From positions 1-32,948 of the forward strand of contig JYFJ02004340.1 of NCBI GenBank assembly GCA_000934665.2: DNA of 32,948 bases, given 5' to 3'. The notes under the pieces were generated by a model that saw only the letters and a list, made by a program, of their open reading frames with translations, ran no database searches and was not told the origin of the DNA. Of this stretch, positions 12,155 through 30,285 are shown piece by piece (the first letter of the stretch is position 1; the number at the start of each line of letters is the position of its first letter). The DNA is from Catajapyx aquilonaris. Lineage: Eukaryota. The translations under genes were made by a program, and so were the position numbers.

Positions 12155-12331
12155 CAGCTCATTGAGGATATCGTCTGGAACGTTCCTGGAGCTGTTGCAC
12201 AAGGCGTAGACCGACGAGTGCGAGAAGATGACCGGGGCTCTGGACACCTTCAGGACGTCTCTCATGGTACGCACCGACACATGGGACAAGTCGACCATCA
12301 TTCCCAGCCGGTTCATCTCCTTCACCACCGT
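12155..12331 (-). CDS. DPEP1: Internal coding exon (177 nt, phase 0/0) of a membrane dipeptidase (peptidase family M19, renal dipeptidase-like)
   Basis: Translates as [59 protein letters not shown], with the M19 motifs EMNRLG-DLSH, PVIFSHS (two metal-binding His) and RNV. Minus-strand acceptor ccttacctttcAG (AG = 12333-12332) and donor GTaggt (12154-12153). The symbol denotes the family; orthology is not established. Confidence 0.95.
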
Positions 12332-12944
12332 CTGAAAGGTAAGGCACTCTTTTCGTCCTGTTTTGCAAAAGTATATGTCTACTCTAAGTCAAAACAACAA
12401 AACACACGACAATAGATAATTATAATTATTGGCACTGAGGTCGCTTCCTCTTGACTGAATTTTGTCAGTAACGGACAAAAAAATTAAAAGATATAGCCTA
12501 CGCAGCTAAAGAGATGGTAGAGATATTGAAGTCGAATTGTCTTTAAATGGCCTGTGCTTGACAAAGGAAAAGTTATTGTGTGCATGCTTCCTACAGCCTT
12601 TGGCAAGGAAAGAAATCCATTAGAATCAGGTTAACAAAGAGGGTGTCTCCAGCTTCAAAGAAGGAGTGGATAATCAGCTAAATTAGAAGAGTTGAAGCAA
12701 AAGAAATTCCGTGCAAACAGTTTTGATTTTGTTCAGATGAGTCCGTCCATGTGGACTGTACATTAAGTTCAAATACAATGTGAAGTTGTAGCTGAACGGA
12801 ATTTAAAGGAAAATTTCTGGCCCATTAATCTCCGACTATATGGTAAAACGTCATGCTTGATAGAAAAAGTAGTGGCAATATTCTCTGTCGAAACAATCAG
12901 GAATCATATTCATCAACTCCATATGCAAATAGCAAGCCCAAAAT

Positions 12945-13312
12945 CAAGGGGTTAACCACTCGCCTGTAATGTGTACACTGGAGCACCAAATTAAAGGAGT
13001 ACCAAGGAGTACCCAAGAGTAAAGTAGCTACCTAAGGAGTACCAGGGAGTACTATGGCCCAAACAAGGATTGTCGCGGGTTATCCTGGCTTGGATGCAAC
13101 CCATTGCAGAGGTGTGCATTGTGTGTGTCCACAAAGACAGCTAAGGAGGCTCCGATGTCGAGCAAAGCAAGTATAAGGGACGGGGTCCGATAAGCAACAC
13201 AACACACATCTGTGCAATGGGTTGCATCCAAGCCAGGATGCGACAATCCTTGTTTGGGTTATAGTACCATTGCAGGTGTGTACACTGGAGTACCGAAGTG
13301 GTTAACCCCTTG
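12945..13312. mobile_element. Composite inverted-repeat element: outer 16-bp IR containing TTAA, inner long IR at 13049-13267
   Basis: Outer caaggggttaaccact / agtggttaaccccttg. Inner gtactatggcccaaacaaggattgtcgc...atcctggcttggatgcaacccattgca and its near reverse complement. Internal gagtac iterations and a direct repeat gtgtacactggag. Confidence 0.7.
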
Positions 13313-16300
13313 CCCAAAAAAGAACGATTGGTCTCAAGACATTGAGGATTATACCACATTACAGCAACACACAAGAATATAGAGGTATCATCAACCATAT
13401 AAACTACTGTATGTGGTGTATAATGAACATTTTGGTTCCCCCCAAAAGTGCATCCAACACTGCAATAGTCTCTGTGTGGGAAAGCATCTGTAGGCTTTTT
13501 TCTGCCGGGCATAACCCACATCATGTGTAAAAATAAGCAACATACAACGTAATTTATGCTAAGTACTGGCATGCAAGAGGGTATGAGTGCATTGCCTGGA
13601 ATCCAGGATGCCGTGTGGGTTTCGGCGTGTAGCTTATCTAGGTACTGCACAGCTAAATACCAGTCATGGTCTGCAAGGTTTTAATAGTTCCTGCCCCAAC
13701 ATTTCGCACGCATTCATTTTATAGTTTTTTAAGAAAAAGAAAACAAGTAACCATTATTACTTGTCGCTGAACTTGGGGTATTCGTTTCCAAAAAAAAAAA
13801 AATCAAGAAATACTTGACACATTAATACACAATCATAATGAAACACTTGCTCTGCGTATACTAGGGAAATGATCATTGTTCTTCAACTTAGATACTTAGA
13901 GAAGATAACAATCACAAGAGTGTACATTAACCATTTAATGCGTTCGTGAAGAGGGCTACCAAATGACGAGACGGTTTTATGTGGACGGAGTCTACACCGC
14001 GGAACATTCTAGGGAAACACTGAAAGACAGTCCCCTCGACAGTCCCCGTCTCAGCAGTCTCAGACTATGGCTTCGTTCACTGATGCAAATTTTTACGCAT
14101 TCTAACCTGCTACATTACAGTTACGGGCTGTATAACTTAAGAGAGGTTTCCCATTTACGGTGCTGGAAATACCGTGCAAAAAAGGAGAAATAACTGCGGC
14201 ACCACATTGCTTTCGCGTTCATTATTGAGGTTTTTCTGGTTAACCGGGCTATTTTGCAGATAATTTAGGTGGTGTTGCGCTTCATGGGACGCCATGTTCA
14301 ATTAGTAGGTAAAAAAGAAAAAGTTCAGGCCATTGTAGCATATGGAAGCGTGGTACTGTATCTTGCACACCTGCTATATACTGTGAAAAAACGCAAACGG
14401 CTTTTCTCGCTATACTGTATTCATTGATGCCGTGTTATGGAATTCAACTGGTAATTACTAATTACGCGTATCAATAGCATTATTAAAAATATGTACTCTT
14501 ACGGCCATGATTAAAATTCTTGCTTATAAATGCACTTATTTGTAGGATTGAATATGTGAGATCATTAGTGCCTCGGAAGTTCAGCAGACCATATAATATA
14601 ATTATTATGGAGGTGTATAGCAAAACGTTAGTAATTAGCCTACTCAGTGCAGTTAGAAATGGAAATTCTTGCAAAATAATAGTAGTGTTCACATATAGGA
14701 CTGCCTAAGGGTCGTTTTTTTATACTTATGCACTAATGACCCGAATGATTTGGCAGTACACAGAATGGCCTGAGGGCATAGTAGCAGTTGTTTGAAGTAG
14801 CTTCTTTGCTTCTGGGCTATCCCGTAGTGTGGAATAAACTGCTATTGATCATTGTTTCTTTTAACTGCAATTAAAAATAAAGAATTCATAATTATTTGAG
14901 AGAATTGTTATGGAACATTGTGGTAAAACAAGAGAGTGCGCCAAAGCATTAAAGTCCCACGACATGCTATGTTTTTGTCTAAGCATGCATTATTCTGCCG
15001 TGAGGTATTGTATACCTTTCATGCAGTATAGGCTGGGAATTATTCATGGACTTTACCAACTCAAGCGGCACAACAACGAATTGAATATAAAGCATTCACA
15101 ATAAATTCTGATCTTCCATCTACGTGAGCAAATCTATCTTTCCGTCTGTATTTCACCTAATAGATCAACAATATTATTGTTCCCTGACCTGTAATTGGAA
15201 TAAGAAGAGGGGAAAATGTTTCTGATAAAAAGAACACATCTGCAAGATTCCCACCCTTTCTCTTTGCTCTCTTTCTCCCAAGACCCGGGGACACTGAGTC
15301 CTAATCGCTTTTCACGCCAATTGCCAACAGCGGTATATCTTACAAAGCGGGCCACTTCCACTTTGCCAGCTGGAAGTTTGTACTTTTCGCGTCGTATTGG
15401 TTAACTCGTAACGGTGCCCAAAGGACTAACCTAAAAAGAAAACATTAATTGGCCTTCTATAAGAACGAGTAGCACGAGTTGCAGCGTAAATTTTACTATC
15501 AGATTTAATTCTTGAGTGTAGGAGATTCAATCCGGAAAGAATAGTGCTACACCAGTGTGGAGTGGATTCAATGCTGACAGCTTTGTAATCGGTGAATATA
15601 ATGCATGCAAACTGCATTATTTAAAAGCTATTTTAAATCAGCAGTATCTAGCAAAAAATTGTTGTATTAAGACAGAAAAATAGTTATTTTTTACGATCCG
15701 GATATTGGTTTCCAACGTGACCAAATTCCAGTGTGAAATATATTAACCTTCTTTATTTCGAAAATGTTACACTCCATGATAAACAAAAATCCTAAAATTG
15801 AGCTTGAAAACTTCCATGAAGTTTGTAGATTAATATTGGCTGTACATGATTAAAAGACGAAGCGAATATAACCCTCAGAACCATCGTTAGTCAACGTGCC
15901 AGAAATAAACGTTAACGGGAAAATATCGCCAGCAATATCGTCGAGGCTAGTAAGTAACCTATCTAGGGTTTCAAGTTGCCAGGAGGAGACATCGATAATA
16001 CATGCGAAAGCACAAAACCGCGCTTACAATGCACGCTGTTGCATGACTTTTCTGAGTAATATAATTTATTCCAAGTGCATTTGAGACCTACATGTTAAAT
16101 ATTGTGCAGTAGGCCAGTTGCTTTAGTTATTATGGGACAGTTATAGCTTCACTGCGGGCTTTTTCCGAGGTTCTCCGTGTGTTTTCAAGAAAAATTAAAT
16201 TAAATATTATGGAAGCAAATGCACGTGCCGTTCATTTTATTTCTACATAATTTCATAAATTTGAGCTTTTCTTGCACATCCCCTAAACCTCCTCAATAGT

Positions 16301-19300
16301 AACCTTGCCGCGACATAGTGAAAATCCTGGCTGTCCGAGAAGTACGTTTAACTTCTAGGAATCTTATTTTTCAGAGACCATGCTTCAAATATTGGTGCAC
16401 GTGGTAAATATACCTCGTATGTAGCCTATGTCAATTTGAAATAGAGGGGACCCTCACAAAGGCATGGGGCCCTCAGAAGGCAAACTTCTAGATGGCTCAC
16501 TATACAAGGCTGTGTCACGGGGCGAAAGTCCTCAAGATTTCCTTCTCTACCGATATAAATTCTCATATGTAAACGCACCTTAACACTGTAAATTAAATAA
16601 AGCAGTGTTTTGCAAATTGAACAAGTTGTAAGTTTGTATTCTTGGGCTTATTTTAATATGCTTCTCTAGACTAACTTGTGCAACTTGGAACATACCCTGA
16701 ACGAGTATGCAAATTGAGAAAGGCAAGCGACACCTTTGTTCCGTTTTGCTCCTAAGCAACTGCTTAGGAAAGTCAAACTTATTTTGAAGCATGCATTATC
16801 GGCAGCAAACGTGGTTTAATTTGAAATGTAAATTACAAAGGACGCCCGTCACTTTCCAAGTGAAATTAGGGCAGGCAACTTTTCATGAAGAGCCCAGGGA
16901 GAAAGTAGCCGACGGGTACATCAGGCCGTAAGGTCGAAACGTTGTATCCCCTGCATTCAAATCCAACAATGCGCGCTTCAAAATTACAACTGTGACCTGC
17001 AGTCATAATATGAATCGTGAGCAAAACAGCCTATTTGACGGACTAGAATTTAATAAACAGGTGTGAATTGTGCCAGTGACCATCATGCAAATTGCACCTC
17101 CTCTCTCCCTCGCTCGTTGTAATTCATAGCAAGTTTACTTTTTCTAGTAAACTGAAAAGCGATTTTTTTTTGGTCAGTATCTAAATGTCCGTACCCCTTT
17201 TTTGTGCCTATTATTTTATTCCTCAAAACGTGAACTTCAATACAGCAGCTGTTAGCCCTGGAGCTGGTAAAAGAAGGGTCACGCGGAATATTTCATTGCA
17301 CGTCCTATAACTGAATAATAGACGAGAGCGGTCTCGTAATGAAGGTAATGCAATTAGCCTCAGTTATAATACAAAGGGGAAATAGTAGATTTGCAGGTAA
17401 ATTAACATCCATGGGACCAGGAGTTCTATTCATCCTGATTGAACCATTCTCTAATATATAAAATACATATTGATATCAAATAGTCTATCTGGGTCGTTGA
17501 TGTGAATGATAAAGTCTTGTCCCTGGCAGAGACCTGGCTAATTAGTATAATGGGGGGCCGGGCAGCAGGGAGAGGCTACAAAACCACGAGTCCGCCACCT
17601 TAAGTAACAAGCGTCTTGGGTCATTTTCTATTCATGGGAGCGGAAATGGACTGGAGATGGCGAAATTGCATGCGGCGGTGTATTCAACGCCTGACGTCCC
17701 CTGGGCTACTTCCACCAGGATAGAAAAGATGGCGCTAAATATACATTCGCCTGTTTTGTCCCTTCCCTCACAAGTCATCTCTGGCTGCCTCTGACTCGTC
17801 TCATTTTGGCATGGGCTCTCGAGCAGCATTGGCTTTTGAGACTAACTTGAGGACCTCCGGCTCACAGCAACATTCGCATTTATGTGATTGCCACGTACGG
17901 GGGTGAGGCCTGCTCCGGACAGGTGCATTCATTCGACGCTGAGGGGATTTGCGACACTATATATTTCATCGTTCCTCACAAATTGATGAGTGCTGATCCT
18001 AAAGTAGCGCTTTTCAAACCTGCGAGCACACGCGTGGGAATAGGCGCGTTGTACTGGTAGTGGTGCAACTCAGGGACATGATGGGTGTCCGGAAAATGTA
18101 CGTAATTATTGGAAGATTGTGTGTTGTATAAAGCTGGACTAAATTACGTGCAGTGTGGGTTGGGGATGAAAGGTACTGGCACTTCACGTTCATGATGTTG
18201 CATTTGAAAGGTTAAAATTGCGCAACAAAGGACTGGAATTTTAGTAACTTCTCCGCATCATAAGGGAGGTTATCAAGAGAGGTAATTTGTAGGATATCAA
18301 TTTTGTTTGGTTCAATATGATTTTTGGTGTAAATGATGTTTGACAGTGTTTACTAAAATTGCAAGCTAGTACTGAAAACGATGAATACAGAATTGAGTTG
18401 TATGCTGGAATTTGACAATTCAAGTTTCACATGGGCACAGAATTTTTATTATAACTTTTGTGGCATTCTTAGACGATGCCCAATTTTTATAGTGATGTAT
18501 TCTTCACTAAAACAGACATTATTTAATGAAATATACCAGTGTTAGATGCTCGTATTGCAATACTCCATCTCGAAGGGTTGCCATATGGAGCATAAAGTAT
18601 AATTTCACAGCAGTCATCAAATTCATGATAAATCTGTTTTATGAACAAAGTGACTCTAAAATAGCTTGCCATATACCATCAAAATGTAAATTAAAATTAT
18701 TTGAGAATTATAATATTATGGCCTTCTGTGGTAACAATATTTGAAATTTGAACAATTGAAATTTTGCAGTCTTTCAACCTCAATATATCAGCTGTCTGTT
18801 TCTCATTTGCAGTAATAGCTTGCAATTTTTTGTTGGCACTGTCAAATATAATTCTTAGCGATTCAAGCACAACAGAATGATGCCCTACAGGCATGAAGTT
18901 GATATCAAAATACACCTCTCATCTTTTTTGCGACCTAGCTAAGCTTGAAAATACCGGTTTTTCCCTCGCTGCCGCTGTCGGGCAGACAATTCAAAGGAAA
19001 TTGTACAGTATAAAATTGTAGGAGTTTGTGGAGAAACCCATAAATGCGAAAAGTAATTGAACAGGTGAGTGGAAAAAGAGTAACATTTCAGTTTCCCTCT
19101 TCAGGAAAACAAAAATTAACAAAAAAAGTTTACTGACGAAATGATTTTTATTGAAAGAATTACTAAATATTACGCAATATATTGTCAATAAGTGTTCAAT
19201 CCCAAAACATCAAAATGAAATGCTCATAAGTTTGTTACTTATTAGGCTAAATTATAATCGCCTGTGTCAGAATCAATTTCCCATATTTTTGGAATGCAAT

Positions 19301-19556
19301 CCTTCTTCCACTCACCAGTTCAACTGTTGGAAAGTATGTCCTTAATAATAAGCAGCTTAGTGCCCAAAATGGCAAACCCCTCAGAATACCGTAAGTAACT
19401 TTGGGAGTTTTTGAAGATTTTCGTATCAGCAGAAACGGTTTAATGTTTTACCAACAAATGTCTTATTAAGGTTTGTACCCTCGTCCTTCCTCTACAAATC
19501 CGTGTTCAGATCATATAGATAACTTTATCCGTTACAAAATTATTCACATTTACATT

Positions 19557-20341
19557 TGTCACAAAGTCACCCCTTAATGTGGGGTGACTTTGTGACAGTG
19601 GTCATTTCCTTGAAGTTAAACATGAGAAACAAAAAATATAACAGTTACCGGTACCCCACAAACTTTTAATTTTAGACAAATTTTCGTCTTTAAAATGATA
19701 TATTATTTTATAAAATTGATCATATATAATAATGTAATATTATGAAAAAACCGCTTGTCTTTTCGTTCAAGTGCTTAACTTCCTCAAGTTCTCAGCGGCT
19801 GGTTTCTTTGGAATTTCATTTGGATGTGTATAATACCGGGTGATACGGTACCCTAAAGGACCCACATAGGTCAAAAAAATAAAATAATATCCGTGGACTG
19901 ACTTTGTGACAAGTTTATGCTGTCACGAAGTCACTCCGCAAAAATATGAAATTCATCTAACTATTCTAACATAACGTAGCTCCTACCAAACAAGTTCAGT
20001 CTTGCATCATGTTATATCATTTCTTAGCCAATGAATTTGTCTTCAAAATATGTTACATGTTTTTACACTTTTACTCTCATCGCAACTATGGGAATCGCTA
20101 TTAAGGAAAGTAATCGGAAGAAGTGCCAACAATCCTCGCAGTTTGCATACGTGGAATGTGACTGCCAGGACTGCCAACATTGCGCAATTGTGGGAGCTTC
20201 TCCAGATGTCTGCTAGGTGGCACCATATTCGCAGCCATCTACTGGCGCTGGTTTCAGTCAATAAGCTAAAATAATTAATAGTGACGCGAGATTCGAAACA
20301 CTGATTTGTCACAAAGTCACCCCGCATGTCACAAAGTCCCC
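19557..20341. mobile_element. DNA-transposon remnant with an iterated TGTCACAAAGTCACCCC motif
   Basis: Motif copies at 19557 (+), 19581 (-), 19899 (-), 19921 (+, variant), 20307 (+) and 20327 (+, partial). This pattern suggests subterminal transposase-binding repeats; boundaries are uncertain. Confidence 0.55.
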
Positions 20342-20656
20342 ATTTCGGATGTAGCACATGCTTACAAGGTCCGGTCATCCAAATCAATTGTCAGTGGTGG
20401 CTAGCGATTTATTTGCAGATAAAAGTATGCTCGCTGTCAGAAAGTACTAGGTGACGCAAAAATTTTCACATTCATCGGACTTAATTCTCAGGCCAATATT
20501 TGTGAATGCAATGGAACTCAATGACTTCCCGACTCAGATGGAGTGCATAGTTGTTGATGATTCCCGATACTTGACTTCATGACTGTTCCATAAGACTGAC
20601 ACCACAAGAGGTCGTAAGGTCTTGATTTTGTAGCTACGTAGTCGGGTGTATGCAGG

Positions 20657-20658
<2 letters not shown>

Positions 20659-20731
<73 letters not shown>

Positions 20732-20760
20732 CAATAACAATAACGACGACGACAATAATA
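20659..20760. repeat. Microsatellite (AAT)22 grading into AAC/GAC triplets
   Basis: Pure AAT run at 20661-20726, then aac aac aat aac aat aac gac gac gac aat aat. Confidence 0.97.
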
Positions 20761-20977
20761 AAGATGGCCGTTTCCATGTAAAGTGTGTATATTTGTTGAC
20801 ACTAAAAATTCTTAGATTCTAAAAAGTGGTGTCCTCTACCCACACAGGGCTCCCTTATGGAAGACGATGATAAGACTACCAGGTAGGAGTGAATTAACTT
20901 AATACATTTTCTTGTCCGATCTTCATATCACAGAATGCAAAAACCGGTAACAATCGTGTATTGCCACTGTACACTAC

Positions 20978-22129
20978 ATGACAGTCATTCATTTAAGCCT
21001 TCCTTCGGTCCAGGAGAGCAGTTTTTGGTCCAATATGAAAAAGAAATTGCTCAGTGGCCCGACTACTACCGGGACATTTGGGAGATGCGGTGTGTTAAAA
21101 AGGTCCTCGATCACCACACTTCACATACTCGATCCTGCAACGCTGAAGCTGACCTGGTACATACCTCCTGCCTCGGTGTTGGTAGTTAAGAAGATGGGGA
21201 ACGAACACATTCCGCGATTTGTGGAACTCATCAAGTGGCTCATTGCTGACAATGAGAAGATTGTGTACGTGGAACACTCGACCTTTATTGACGACTCTTG
21301 CCACAACAACCCGGAATTTACGGATATCCTTCATAAATTGAAGACATTCATGCCCGGCGACGAAGACCTGGCAGAGAAGGTAGATCTCATCGTTTGCTTG
21401 GGAGGCGACGGCACTCTGCTGCATGCAAGCTCGCTCTTCAAGAACTCCGTACCTCCCGTCATTGCCTTTAACATGGGAGTTCTTGGATTTATGACCCCCT
21501 TCAACTTTAACAGCTACCAGGAAGTCATAACAGATGTGTTTGAAAAAACCCCATTCTTGATGATGAGGAGCCGCTTGAAGTGTACCATACTGAAGAAGGA
21601 TGACTCGGCGCCTCTTGTAAGCTACACGGTCCTGAACGAAGTTGTGATAGATCGCGGAGAGTCTCCGTACCTCTCGAACATCGACCTGTTCATGCAGGGC
21701 AAGCACATCACGTCGGTGCAAGGAGACGGTTTGATAGTCTCTACACCAACTGGCAGCACCGCTTACGCTGGATCAGCCGGCTCATCCTTGATACACCCGA
21801 GCGTGCCATCGGTGATGGTGACTCCCATCTGCCCTCACTCACTGTCCTTCAGGCCACTTGTGGTACCGGCCGGCGTTCAGCTAGAGGTCTCTATTTCGCC
21901 GTTCAGCCGAGGTTCAGGATGGGTGTCTTTTGACGGACGGAACAGGCAGCAACTTCGTGATGGATACAAACTGCATATTAAAGTGTCAAAATATCCTCTC
22001 CCGTCAGTTTGCTCCCAGGATCAATTGTTGGAGTGGACAACATCGCTGTCAGAATGTCTCCACTGGAACGCGAGGGCAATACAAAAACCCCTGGATGTCC
22101 CACATGAGGAACAGCCCAATTCTTCGTAA
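20978..22129 (+). CDS. NADK: NAD+ kinase (cytosolic animal NADK type) with an intronless catalytic region; probable retrogene
   Basis: 383-aa ORF with CLGGDGTLL, LGFMTPF, VLNEVVIDRG, VQGDGLIVSTPTGSTAY, TPICPHSLSFRP, VSFDGR and LSECLHWN, plus the animal-type N-terminal FGxCG...HIxDPA...LTW segment. The start is uncertain (ATG 20978 or ATG 21035); the frame is closed upstream by TAA at 20948-20950. Confidence 0.95.
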   Translation: MTVIHLSLPSVQESSFWSNMKKKLLSGPTTTGTFGRCGVLKRSSITTLHILDPATLKLTWYIPPASVLVVKKMGNEHIPRFVELIKWLIADNEKIVYVEHSTFIDDSCHNNPEFTDILHKLKTFMPGDEDLAEKVDLIVCLGGDGTLLHASSLFKNSVPPVIAFNMGVLGFMTPFNFNSYQEVITDVFEKTPFLMMRSRLKCTILKKDDSAPLVSYTVLNEVVIDRGESPYLSNIDLFMQGKHITSVQGDGLIVSTPTGSTAYAGSAGSSLIHPSVPSVMVTPICPHSLSFRPLVVPAGVQLEVSISPFSRGSGWVSFDGRNRQQLRDGYKLHIKVSKYPLPSVCSQDQLLEWTTSLSECLHWNARAIQKPLDVPHEEQPNSS

Positions 22130-22426
22130 AGTAACTTGGTCATTGTCTTGCCACCATGTAAACAGTGAAAAAGTAAAACAAAATTGTAGCAGTGAAGGTG
22201 TGCATCTCTCTCATCAGCCAGATTGATTGACAGTGCACAAGGCACTGCATGTTTTTGTGTAACTTTCATAGGTGTTGAGTGGCAGTTACTGCAGTGTCGC
22301 AAGATTTTAAACTGATATTGCAATGCTGCAATCAACAGATAGTAATACTATATCTGTATAACATCGTGAGTTGGTTTGTAAGTTATAATTTTTATGAATA
22401 CATCGCATTGGCGAATGGAATGTCGG

Positions 22427-22514
22427 GCTGACTCGTGCACGAGTCAGCTATCAATGAAATAACGAAAGTCAATCTTTCCATGGAAAGATTGACTTTCGTT
22501 ATTTCATTGATAGC
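22427..22514. repeat. Two abutting perfect, spacerless palindromes (22 bp at 22427-22448; 68 bp at 22447-22514)
   Basis: gctgactcgtgcacgagtcagc overlaps by 2 nt with gctatcaatgaaataacgaaagtcaatctttcca|tggaaagattgactttcgttatttcattgatagc. Confidence 0.95.
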
Positions 22515-23015
22515 AATAACAGGATAAATTGCGATATCCAACAGCAGCAAGTACAATATTATTCCTAGTGCTCTTGGTCTCTTGAAATTAAGCCATCCAA
22601 TAAGTCGAACAGTACTCATCACCTTTCACTAGCACTTCGGCATGAAGCACTCTGTGGCCATTTGTTTGATCACAGGTTTTTATTAGCAGGAAATGACGGT
22701 ATTTTCTCGTCTGGTGCGGAGTAGTCTACTGTCTACATTCACTCACAATCAGTTGTGACCGACATAATTGTCCTAGTCGATCCAGTCCTTTGTTTATTGT
22801 GTGTCCTTGCATTTTTGCTTCATATAACATCGAGTCGTCGGCAAAGAATATCCAGAACAAGCCCTATCCCATGTTATGACTCCGCCATTGTCATAAAAAA
22901 TTAAAATGCCAGCAGAGTCGCCTCCTGTGGCCATTTGAAGTGCTAAAAAATTGCAACTTCTCAACTTTTAATCCCCAGTTTTCAAAACTAAGAGAAGTAA
23001 CACTCAGACATCTTA

Positions 23016-24081
23016 CAAGGGAAGGTCACCCATTGTATCATCAGTTGAAAAAGAACTGTCCCAGTCATCCTGACGTGTGGGCTGGCCGCTCGACACACAC
23101 CATGTAAGTTACATGGTGTGTGTCGAGCGGGCAGCACACACATCAGGATGACTGGGACAATTCTTTTTCAACTGATGATACCTGGAGTTTCTGAATGAAA
23201 CTTGGCACAATAATATAGGCATCAGGTATGTTATTAACCAAAATGCACACCGTTTCAGCCTAGCGATACAAGGTCAAAAGTTATGACCTCTCGATGTGAG
23301 CCCGGACAGCTTACCTTAATAGGAGTGAAGTTTCAGATATTGCACTCAAAAAAGCAGACATTTTATTACATAATTGGAAATGGATAATATTACTCTGATT
23401 ACAACGAGCTATACCAGACCTGCTAGATCGCAGCTATTATTGAGAAAATAGCTTCTGAAGTTTTGCGAAAAAAAACAATTATTTTCTCTCAAATTACGTG
23501 CCCGATTGGCATCAAATCCAGCTTATAGCCTACTCCTAGAAAATTTAGAAAATCAGGTTCCCTAATTTTTCGTATGCCGGAAGCATAAGCCACATGCAGA
23601 TGAAATGAAGCATCGTACATTAGCACCTAAGACTGTTTGCGATAATGATTGTGTTCAAATAAAAACATGTATGTACAACGAGCACATCTTATGTATAAAT
23701 GAGAGTGTGGGACAGTACTGCACAGTATAAAGAAAGCAGAGAAACCTTTCTTATATTTTTGTCGGCTCGCTCGATAGAAGGCAATGCAGGAACTTGTCGT
23801 TTCTGAGATGTGCTCATTGTACAAGTGTGTTTTGTTTTGAACATATAATTTAAAACATGCATAAGTGTTAATTTTCTATGCTTCTTTTTATCTGCCAGTG
23901 ATTTACCCTTCCCGCTTAGGTAAGCTGTCCGAGATGACTTCGAGAGGTCATAACTTTTGACCTTGTATCTCTAGGCCTAAACAGTCTGCGTTTTGGTTAA
24001 TAACATACCTGCCTATATTATTGTGTCAAGTTTTATTCAGCACCTCCAATCCTCCATGTTACAATGGGTGACCTTTCCTTG
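23016..24081. mobile_element. About 1.07-kb non-autonomous element with long TIRs and a TTA target duplication (PIF/Harbinger, Tourist-like)
   Basis: tta|CAAGGGAAGGTCACCCATTGTA ... TACAATGGGTGACCTTTCCTTG|tta. Inverted homology continues between about 23181-23316 and 23918-24050 (aggtatgttattaaccaaaa, gatacaaggtcaaaagttatgacctctcga, cggacagcttacct). Confidence 0.8.
23038..23178. mobile_element. 141-bp foldback element inserted at TA within the left TIR of the larger element
   Basis: 70-bp arms around a single G (23108) with 4 mismatched pairs. Flanked by TA at 23036-37 and 23179-80, and absent from the partner TIR. Confidence 0.8.
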
Positions 24082-24852
24082 TTAGCTCTGGTGTGTAATT
24101 CTACGGTATTTGTCACATTTTAGTAGCCTACATACTATCACGCACTATTTGTGCCATAATATTTGTGGACCAAGCAAAAGTACCTATCTTACTTTTTTAC
24201 TTTCTTTAAAAATGATATTTTATTATGGCGACAACTGTACATAATACTGTTGGACTCTTCCATATACATGTAGGCCTACCATATGTTTGTTTATTCAATT
24301 CCTTTCAAAATCGGATTTTCCCTCGCGCATTTTCTAAATGTTTTATTTTGGAGATCTGGTACGCTCTGGCATAAACTTGACTAGCCCTCCATCATCCATC
24401 TGCCAAAATTTGCTTTGTTCATTTCCAAATCCTGTCAATGGGTTCGGCCACCAGATATGCAGTCCCTCTTATTTCTTGCATTTTAGGCCGGGGCATTATA
24501 AGGGTATTTATTGATGGGTTGGCCGCGGTTTCTAATTAGCGAGATAAAAACTCCCCTCTCCCATCATTTCAGTTTTTTGGGTAAGGCCGTTGTAGTACCT
24601 TTTTCATCCGAGCTGCATAATAAAAAGCACGAATTTGTGGGGAGTCAAGAATTTGAAGGATATTGGCCTGGTAGATTGCCTGGGAACGTTAGTTAATTTT
24701 ATATTGGGATTAAGTTGATTAATTTTTTCGGTTTATTTCAGATACGTGTATTCCTTGGTGTATAATTATTCACTAATGTTAATATCTGTATACGTCATGA
24801 GCTCACTATCCAAATGCGTGGGTTTATCATCATGTATGTTGCACTCAAAGTA

Positions 24853-25012
24853 CAGTGTTGGTCATATATTGAGGCAACCGCCAGCGACATTTTCCGAAGC
24901 GGCAGAAGAAGGAATCGAAGATAAGCATACTGCAAGCCAGGCGAGAAAGATTCCTTCTTCTGCCGCTTCGGAAAATGTCGCTGGCGGTTGCCTCGATATA
25001 TGACGAAGACTG
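24853..25012. mobile_element. 160-bp MITE with CAGT...ACTG termini and TA TSD (Tc1/mariner-pogo type)
   Basis: ta|CAGTgttggtcatatattgaggcaaccgccagcgac...ggaatc, a 32-nt spacer, then the reverse complement ending gaagACTG|ta. Arms are 64 bp with 3 mismatches. Confidence 0.82.
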
Positions 25013-25712
25013 TACTGCAGTTTGCAGCATTGGAGTCAAAATTCGTGTCCGGAAAATTATGCCGTTTAATAGAAGATGGTACAATGAACCTTTTAAATAG
25101 TGCTAATGATCTCTGTAACGATGCTTCTAAGAACAAATGCCACCTTTCCATTTAGTGATCCTCTGCTTTCCAAGAAGTTTGTCTCAATCATTATGATTAT
25201 GAAACACTATGCAGTCCAAATGCACTGCATCTCAAAAATATACATGATGATCCAAAATACCTGTAGTTGTACGAATTTTATTGTGTTCGGTAATAACGTC
25301 AGAAGAAACAAACTAAACATCAGCATAGCATAGTGAGCTGACTAAACGAAAGGGTCTTACATTATCTCGAATTTTCTTCGTCACGGGATGGGCAATTTGT
25401 TCGCGTTGATTGCGTCAAGACTCTGTGAGAAACTCGTGTAGGAAAACATTACAGGAAGCGTTACGGAAGTCTAATGGATCCCTTACAAGATGATGATCAT
25501 TAAGCAGCGATGCTTTACTTTCTACACAGCATGCCACTTGAGTGGATGGGGAATACGACACATTTGACAAAATTACGACTTTCCAAATTGTCAAGCTGAC
25601 ACCGGTTGTCTTGGCGATCCAAAATGCCATTACGCTTCAAAAAAAAATATCAATACTTTGTACATATACTGATCATTGTCGGACCTTTAAAAATAGAAAA
25701 AAATTTACTTAC

Positions 25713-25782
25713 CTTCCCAAACTCGGTGAGCCCTCCATGTTCGGAATGATAACCCGGATTGTCTGCCGTAGCGGAATCCGCC
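25713..25782 (-). CDS. DPEP1: Preceding internal coding exon (70 nt, phase 2/0) of the same membrane dipeptidase
   Basis: Absent from the ORF track. The minus strand reads ctaattcattttattggcAG|G GCG GAT TCC GCT ACG GCA GAC AAT CCG GGT TAT CAT TCC GAA CAT GGA GGG CTC ACC GAG TTT GGG AAG|GTaagt, i.e. (W)ADSATADNPGYHSEHGGLTEFGK. This is the (PW)AD...GLTxFG segment that directly precedes VVKEMNRLG in M19 enzymes, and it splices in frame to 12331. Confidence 0.93.
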
Positions 25783-29545: not shown

Positions 29546-29628
29546 TGATGGTGGCGGGATTCGAACCCGCGCCTCCGGAGGAGACTGGTACCTGAAACCA
29601 GCGCCTTAGACCACTCGGCCACACCACC
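29546..29628 (-). tRNA. trnL-CAG: tRNA-Leu (anticodon CAG)
   Basis: Minus strand GGTGGTGTGGCCGAGTGGTCTAAGGCGCTGGTTTCAGGTACCAGTCTCCTCCGGAGGCGCGGGTTCGAATCCCGCCACCATCA. It has an A box, B box GGTTCGAATCC, anticodon stem CTGGT/ACCAG, long variable arm, discriminator A and one G-U pair in the acceptor stem. T4 and T6 tracts follow downstream. Confidence 0.92.
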
Positions 29629-30203: not shown

Positions 30204-30285
30204 GGTGGTGTGGCCGAGTGGTCTAAGGCGCTGGTTTTAGGTACCAGTCTCCCAGGAGTCGCGGGTTCGAATCCCGTCACCACCA
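30204..30285 (+). tRNA. trnL-TAG: tRNA-Leu (anticodon TAG)
   Basis: GGTGGTGTGGCCGAGTGGTCTAAGGCGCTGGTTTTAGGTACCAGTCTCCCAGGAGTCGCGGGTTCGAATCCCGTCACCACCA. Perfect acceptor stem GGTGGTG/CACCACC, anticodon TAG at 30238-30240, variable arm, A and B boxes. Confidence 0.94.

Follow-up and report, generated by a model that had tools for sequence, protein, structure and literature searches.

The question raised by this locus is what an unbroken reading frame for NAD kinase (NADK) is doing within an intron of an unrelated gene and on the opposite strand, that is, whether it is a working gene, where it came from, and what sort of enzyme it would encode. The DNA analyzed here (the window) is a 32,948-nucleotide stretch of the Catajapyx aquilonaris genome (GenBank assembly GCA_000934665.2, contig JYFJ02004340.1, positions 1–32,948 of the forward strand). 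Judged from its sequence, the frame is an extra NADK gene that is intact, has diverged strongly, and is maintained by selection; it is probably a retrogene. NADK has been described as the sole cytosolic source of NADP+, and a second arthropod NADK in which a quarter of the otherwise invariant positions are altered, with the active site kept, amounts to a natural experiment, since such a copy can separate the parts of NADK needed for catalysis from those needed for regulation. In genomic terms, the retention of a gene copy nested antisense within an intron is ordinary, an event of a common kind.

The frame around which the analysis turns is the following:

20978..22129, + strand: NAD kinase open reading frame (ORF), running from ATG to stop as a single unbroken frame of 383 codons plus a TAA stop.

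An in-frame stop codon lies 5′ of the ORF at 20948–20950 (+), and the frame measured from stop to stop comprises 392 codons from 20951, making it the longest in the ORF listing of the whole window; the runners-up encode 225 aa, in antisense to the NADK frame, and 195 aa. The G+C content of the region is 50%, as against a background of 38–40%. Both Pfam domains of an NADK were detected in the ORF, namely NAD_kinase (PF01513; 70.1 bits, cutoff 25.5, profile positions 3–127 of 130) and NAD_kinase_C (PF20143; 109.9 bits, cutoff 23.7, profile positions 1–122 of 126), and the human NADK structures 8kgc, 9cr3, 9cr4, and 3pfn match it with E values of 3e-113 to 1e-107. Alignment to 23 arthropod NADK orthologs—from insects, crustaceans, a millipede, spiders, and a horseshoe crab, the comparison set used throughout—showed the ORF to be collinear with them from aa 21 to approximately aa 379, with no stop or frameshift. 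When the window was searched by tblastn with 120 NADK queries, no second NADK-like piece was detected, the best match outside 20900–22200 having an E value of 0.37; thus, all of the NADK homology is contained in one unbroken frame. The original prediction of a full NADK catalytic ORF on the + strand, free of stops and frameshifts, is borne out by the 383-codon frame, the two Pfam domains, and the collinear alignment. The motifs that it called intact (GGDG, NE, and STPTGSTAY) are found at aa 142–145, 220–227, and 255–263, and the two altered stretches that it singled out, TAYAGSAGSS and FNMGVLGFM, are both present in the ORF. Its further description of the gene as intronless holds for the homologous body (aa 21–379), which is unbroken, and less securely for the gene as a whole, to which a short 5′ exon, considered below, may belong.

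The surroundings of the ORF are defined by two exons and the intron between them:

25713..25782, − strand: upstream host exon of 70 nt, from a membrane dipeptidase gene (M19, DPEP1-like), with an AG acceptor and a GTAAGT donor.
12155..12331, − strand: the 177-nt exon that follows in this dipeptidase gene, flanked by an AG acceptor and a GTAGGT donor.
12332..25712, − strand: host intron of 13,381 nt, carrying the NADK ORF on the opposite strand.

The upstream exon (25782–25713) reads ADSATADNPGYHSEHGGLTEFGK, with ...ttggcag before it and gtaagt after it, and the next exon (12331–12155) ends in ...DILNEL, with ...ctttcag before it and gtaggt after it; the two are joined in phase 0, after ...GGLTEFGK. 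Full-length dipeptidases from insects or crustaceans (n = 10) served as tblastn queries, of which seven matched both exons as adjoining query ranges (e.g., P0178, with residues 206–228 and 228–288) and three matched the larger exon only. The larger exon scores 97.1 bits on Peptidase_M19 and is 78–85% identical to DPEP1-like proteins of stick insects, springtails, thrips, termites, and locusts. The small exon is weak when taken alone (E values of 4.5e-4 to 0.21) and was accepted because of its adjacency to the larger exon and its splice sites. None of the ten queries detected a further dipeptidase exon within the window, which indicates that the host gene runs past both window ends. The adjoining alignments, the canonical splice sites, and the phase 0 join all agree with the earlier claim of a position antisense between consecutive minus-strand dipeptidase exons, and on this reading of the exons the NADK ORF is a nested gene, contained entirely in the interval between consecutive exons of a single host gene. 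Among the 131 frames of at least 62 aa in the window, only the M19 exon and NADK passed the Pfam cut-offs, with no other Pfam-level coding match. A transposon or viral carrier of NADK was considered and rejected in the same search of 131 frames, the sub-threshold matches to DUF1456, Pex24p, and Zn_ribbon_15 being dismissed.

How far the nested gene has departed from its relatives is most easily seen against the conservation of NADK, which ranks with the best-conserved arthropod proteins in this comparison, with 186 columns invariant from horseshoe crab to ants. The 23 orthologs are 66.7–92.4% identical among themselves, even when the horseshoe crab is compared with insects, whereas the window NADK is 52.5–59.2% identical to each of them (about 54%) and has altered 44 of the 186 invariant columns. 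In quick trees, its end branch was 5.78 as against a median of 0.28 (29 rows) and 10 as against 0.27 (22 rows). The database searches gave the same picture. The 120 best matches in a 90%-cluster protein library were all canonical arthropod NADKs (48–58% identity), so that no closer relative of near length was found among them, the best identity being 58%; in a 50%-representative library of 1.84 billion proteins, none of the 73 matches listed of 150 compared was nearer to the window NADK than to canonical NADK, with a few distant representatives tying within 1–4 bits. Furthermore, none of 120 short fragments was nearer to the window NADK than to canonical NADK. The portrayal of the copy as old, with many substitutions outside the core motifs, is in keeping with this gap between about 54% identity and the 67–92% seen among orthologs.

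Such divergence could in principle belong to the animal's only cytosolic NADK—an ortholog that was relocated or lost its introns and evolved fast—and the completeness of the active site speaks for this. This account is nevertheless considered very unlikely. It would be exceptional for an essential single copy to alter, within one lineage, 44 of 186 invariant columns; relaxed constraint is to be expected of a redundant gene; and the neighboring dipeptidase exon is ordinarily conserved, for which reason the host genome does not seem to be generally fast-evolving.

Whether the frame is maintained by selection was addressed with neutral simulations that started from the ORF and allowed substitutions only; indels would have made stop-free survival rarer still. 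Of 300 runs at each level of aa identity, 8 remained free of stops at 80%, 3 at 70%, and none at either 62% or 55%. The residues that the copy has kept are also distributed unevenly. The ortholog consensus is retained as follows:

Invariant columns: 149 of 201 (74%).
Columns at least 80% conserved: 41 of 91 (45%).
Columns 50–80% conserved: 14 of 56 (25%).
Columns less than 50% conserved: 5 of 22 (23%).

This count by column class admits columns with at most 20% gaps, hence 201 invariant columns rather than 186, and it shows constraint graded with ortholog conservation (Fisher p 8e-14). The 52 changes at invariant columns have a mean BLOSUM62 score of +0.35, as compared with −0.66 ± 0.21 for random single-nucleotide changes, and none of 2000 random sets was as conservative as the observed changes. 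In addition, the GC3 of the ORF is 0.60, versus 0.39 for the rest of the intron. Overall, the pattern is the one shown by a protein-coding gene on which purifying selection is relaxed but real; purifying selection had been suggested from the intact motifs and is now supported by the stop-free runs at 62% and 55% identity (0 of 300 each), the graded constraint, and the conservative nature of the changes. An unexpressed processed pseudogene, its frame open by chance, would fit the absence of a poly(A) signal consensus downstream of the ORF. Such an origin is extremely improbable when set against the neutral runs, which left no open frame at either of the two lower identities even without indels, against changes that are conservative and avoid the conserved columns, and against a GC3 well above the G+C content of the intron.

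The next question is from which lineage the copy was drawn. Pancrustacea and Chelicerata are each close to fixation for a different residue at 21 columns; of these, the window NADK matches Pancrustacea at 10 and Chelicerata at none, and it has a third residue at 11 (binomial p 0.002). A mollusc-rooted tree grouped the window NADK with arthropods (SH-aLRT 96), and constraining it to Pancrustacea improved on the free tree by 2.77 log-likelihood units (p-AU 0.705). Other results are less clear: in free trees, the copy falls at the arthropod base without resolution, and long-branch effects are flagged; of 44 columns informative for arthropod versus mollusc, 19 carry the arthropod residue, 10 the mollusc residue, and 15 another; a comparison with six mixed outgroups gave 4 arthropod, 4 outgroup, and 3 other; and the six columns that separate insect from non-insect arthropods were divided 2, 1, and 3 and are uninformative. 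Because the trees are unresolved, the placement relies on the shared-state counts and the AU test, from which the copy is an arthropod-type and most likely a pancrustacean-type NADK. Given that type, it is concluded, from sequence affinity, that the copy arose as a duplicate within the host's own pancrustacean lineage, and that it is neither an ancient paralog nor foreign DNA.

For the function of the encoded protein, residues were mapped via alignment to human NADK, with the numbering checked by the spacing of D314, T325, Y327, and H351. The relevant elements, all on the + strand, are:

21038..21061, + strand: KKKLLSGP, the degenerate counterpart of canonical RTRSLNAP (human RTRS64LHGP).
21401..21412, + strand: GGDG (aa 142–145), including the catalytic Asp equivalent to human D184.
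21635..21658, + strand: NEVVIDRG (aa 220–227), with N and E equivalent to human N284 and E285.
21716..21766, + strand: VQGDG...STPTGSTAY (aa 247–263), with the equivalents of human D314, T325, and Y327; STPTGSTAY itself is aa 255–263.
21773..21775, + strand: TCA codon of Ser266, the equivalent of human A330.
22061..22084, + strand: HWNARAIQ of the C-tail (aa 362–369), with the equivalents of human W427, N428, R430, and Q433.

The equivalents of D184, F211, N284, E285, D314, T325, Y327, and H351 are kept in the copy, as are those of W427, N428, R430, and Q433 in the C-tail; F436 is replaced by Leu, as in most insects. In human NADK, D184 is the catalytic Asp of GGDG, N284 and E285 contact the adenine and ribose of NAD+, and W427, R430, and Q433 are needed for activity, with W427G and R430A nearly abolishing it (PMC11759006). 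Of the NAD+-binding set (N284, E285, D314, T325, Y327, H351, F211, and L212), all are kept save L212, for which the copy has Met172, a conservative change. The Ala at human position 330 is strictly conserved in animal cytosolic NADKs, where it replaces a Ser that is highly conserved in all other NADK structures and that hydrogen-bonds the nicotinamide amide (PMC11759006); in bacterial, yeast, and other NADKs, it is this Ser that binds the nicotinamide amide. All 23 arthropod orthologs have Ala, and the copy has Ser266, a return to the general NADK residue that is compatible with catalysis.

Several changes stand against the retained active site. The C domain is 75% identical to the ortholog consensus, the N domain 52%, and the N-terminal segment 38%, and the low value for the N domain means that activity is not assured; L212 to Met and A330 to Ser, both at positions lining the active site, also set the copy apart from all 23 orthologs. 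These points count against a working enzyme. With the catalytic, NAD+-binding, and C-tail residues in view, the copy most likely still encodes a working NAD+ kinase (ATP + NAD+ → NADP+).

The regulatory region presents a different picture. In human NADK, the N-tail is an inhibitory region controlled by phosphorylation, and an enzyme deleted for residues 1–68 or 1–87 becomes more active, matching isoform 3, which is short by nature (PMC11759006). In the copy, NADK homology starts at K21, with KKKLLSGP in place of canonical RTRSLNAP, and the equivalent of human S64 is Leu; in the alignment, there is no counterpart of the human region 38–61, which contains S44, S46, S48, and S50. The conserved arthropod C-terminal ELSDLTHSSSNDTLDSLD tail is likewise missing. 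With the N-tail missing and the C-tail kept, the analogy with the human deletions and isoform 3 suggests that the copy would be a constitutively active, signal-independent NADK; any hyperactivity is likewise proposed by analogy. Tempering this proposal, canonical arthropod loci also yield isoforms with short N-termini, so that a short N-terminus is not unique to the copy. The likeness to the human forms (PMC11759006) lies in the removal of most of the inhibitory N-terminal region with the core and C-tail kept; the difference is that isoform 3 and the deletions derive from the canonical gene by splicing or engineering, whereas in the copy the short N-terminus is a fixed feature of a gene that is separate and diverged. 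Two concrete, assayable predictions follow from the missing N-tail and the change from Ala330 to Ser. A more far-reaching possibility, which seems quite unlikely, is that of a specialized isozyme freed from Akt/PKC-type N-terminal control, with altered substrate or product handling owing to the Ala330-to-Ser reversion, and used in one tissue such as the germline; if such an isozyme existed, its use of NADH versus NAD+ or its inhibition by NADP+, for example, could differ.

Where the protein begins bears both on its regulation and on the number of its exons. Two features are relevant:

21035..21037, + strand: second in-frame ATG (Met20), directly before K21; a possible true start, giving a 364-aa product.
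20857..20882, + strand: candidate 5′ mini-exon of 26 nt, from an ATG to CAG/GTAGGA; a pure sequence prediction.

Across 30 isoforms from 8 species, canonical arthropod NADKs differ in their N-termini up to RTRSL and have a common body from there, which indicates a conserved junction for alternative first exons at RTRSL. K21 aligns with the first residue of RTRSL, and the frame in the window reads through the junction point. Upstream of K21, one of eight aligned positions matches a canonical first exon, and homology to any first exon is not reliable there; without it, the running of the frame through the RTRSL point does not prove a fused junction. The 1.15-kb frame might accordingly be the main coding exon of a gene with one or more short 5′ exons, neither strictly intronless nor starting at 20978. 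A pyrimidine-rich stretch with AG sites at 21012–21021 lies 5–8 codons before the canonical junction position, the ATG...CAG/GTAGGA unit at 20857–20888 could be joined in frame at two AGs (21017–21018 or 21020–21021), and canonical genes join alternative first exons just before RTRSL. This structure is nonetheless given little credence, being predicted from sequence alone: the first AG after the pyrimidine tract (21012–21013) would not join the mini-exon in frame and leads to a frameshift and a stop, the ATGs of the frame itself carry A at −3, and no NADK-like N-terminal exon was found upstream in the window by tblastn with the 120 NADK queries.

Two repeat features were noted in the same upstream region. 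An (ATA)28 microsatellite of 95% purity occupies 20659–20743, 235 nt upstream of the first NADK ATG. Farther upstream, a TGTCACAAAGTCACC-type motif of 15–21 nt recurs several times within 800 nt (19551–20341), in both direct and inverted orientation; the copies look like remnants of a small inverted-repeat element.

How the copy came to lie in the dipeptidase intron is the last of the questions. Canonical animal NADK bodies are normally multi-exon, as in the fly and human genes, and retrogenes nested antisense in host introns are a general class in animals. The body of the copy is uninterrupted, and, because of this contrast in structure, retroposition is the most economical account of a complete, unbroken body lying alone and antisense in an unrelated intron. 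We infer that the copy was retroposed, that a parent gene exists, that the copy is transcribed and enzymatically active, and that its regulation has been lost. The course of events would have been as follows. The parent would be the cytosolic NADK of a pancrustacean, probably hexapod, host; its spliced mRNA would have been reverse-transcribed and would have landed antisense in the intron of the DPEP1-like dipeptidase gene; the copy would then have evolved many times faster than the canonical gene, under purifying selection on the NADK fold and active site, and would be transcribed from its own promoter; and the essential, regulated role would fall to a canonical NADK located elsewhere in the genome. 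A lineage-specific extra cytosolic NADK copy, retroposed antisense into the dipeptidase intron, evolving fast but under constraint, and still working, is thus the account that we favor, with a probability somewhat better than even.

The sequence downstream of the ORF does not help this account. No remnant of a poly(A) tract was seen there, the most A-rich 20-mer having 14 A residues at 22164, directly after AGTAAA; no AATAAA lies within 1.1 kb of the stop codon, where only AGTAAA at 22172 and ATTAAA at 22900 occur; and no convincing target-site duplication was found, the flanking direct repeats (14–21 nt, 81–86% identity) not being placed as a LINE-type insertion would place them. Both a 3′ poly(A) tract and a target-site duplication, the usual marks of a retrogene, are absent here and would be expected to erode in an old copy. 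In terms of the original prediction of an old, retained retro-paralog, the age, divergence, and retention of the copy have held up; the retroposition is the interpretive part, lacking a poly(A) tract or target-site duplication to accompany it.

The same absences are what a DNA-level duplicate would show—that is, a copy made by segmental duplication followed by intron loss, or one from a parent whose body was already a single exon, and then kept and diverged. The lack of clear homology between the frame upstream of K21 and any canonical first exon (1 of 8 positions) also accords with it. At such divergence, however, the hallmarks of retroposition are expected to be eroded, and their absence is weak evidence; moreover, several events would be needed to lose every body intron by other routes, and the copy lies alone, antisense in the intron of an unrelated gene, with no duplicated flank. 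A DNA-level duplication is hence regarded as unlikely, and retroposition remains the preferred origin.

Downstream of the ORF, two palindromes were observed. One, at 22447–22514, is perfect, has 34-nt arms, and begins 318 nt after the NADK stop; the other, at 23035–23181, has 73-nt arms that are 95% complementary. Both may be foldback or MITE-like elements.

Comparison with known NADKs places the copy more precisely. Animals have one cyto-clade and one mito-clade NADK (PMC6675116). The copy has both Pfam domains in common with the canonical cytosolic enzyme (human 3pfn, 8kgc, and 9cr3; the cyto-clade of PMC6675116), together with GGDG, NE, GDG, STPTGSTAY, the CPH histidine, and the W, N, R, and Q of the C-tail, and its collinearity with the canonical body extends from the RTRSL position to the C-tail. 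Unlike the canonical enzyme, it has nothing homologous to the regulatory N-tail that precedes RTRSL, a motif that has itself degenerated to KKKLL; unlike the canonical arthropod enzyme, it lacks the C-terminal tail described above and has Ser for A330 and Met for L212; and its body is a single exon in the intron of an unrelated gene. Of the characters by which the cyto-clade is recognized, the Pfam domains, GGDG, and C-tail are thus present in the copy, and the Ala at human 330 is not. The words "retro," "intron," and "arthropod" do not appear in PMC6675116, and retrocopies are unmentioned in it. More broadly, no description of an NADK retrogene was found in print, in a search outside of which most subscription journals lay.

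A precedent for an insect with two cytosolic-type NADKs of unequal divergence is provided by Drosophila melanogaster, in which CG6145 and CG33156 are 54.1% and 63.4% identical to human NADK, respectively (PMC5336252). The database matches listed for the copy are all of canonical type, with none nearer to the copy, which argues against an old paralog clade shared with CG6145. The fly DPEP1-like gene is CG6154 (PMC6372189), and the gene list that PMC4965076 gives for a 0.79-Mb 3R interval of D. melanogaster with CG6154 names neither CG6145 nor CG33156. An old linkage between NADK and the dipeptidase was for this reason set aside, there being no sign of it in the fly CG6154 interval—a weak argument, from one species (PMC4965076).

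The copy also resembles nested retrogenes in being an unbroken copy of a normally multi-exon housekeeping gene, alone on the opposite strand of a large unrelated intron, and fast-evolving. It differs from defined retrocopies in that neither a poly(A) tract nor a target-site duplication was found in it.

Beyond the NADK ORF, the window contains two tRNA-Leu genes on opposite strands, with the anticodons CAG and TAG, at 29546–29628 (−) and 30204–30285 (+), respectively. Each lies in a unit of approximately 320 nt, and the 85% similarity between the two units takes in approximately 170 nt of 5′ flank and a 3′ T-run. The pair is situated in what should be the next upstream intron of the dipeptidase gene.

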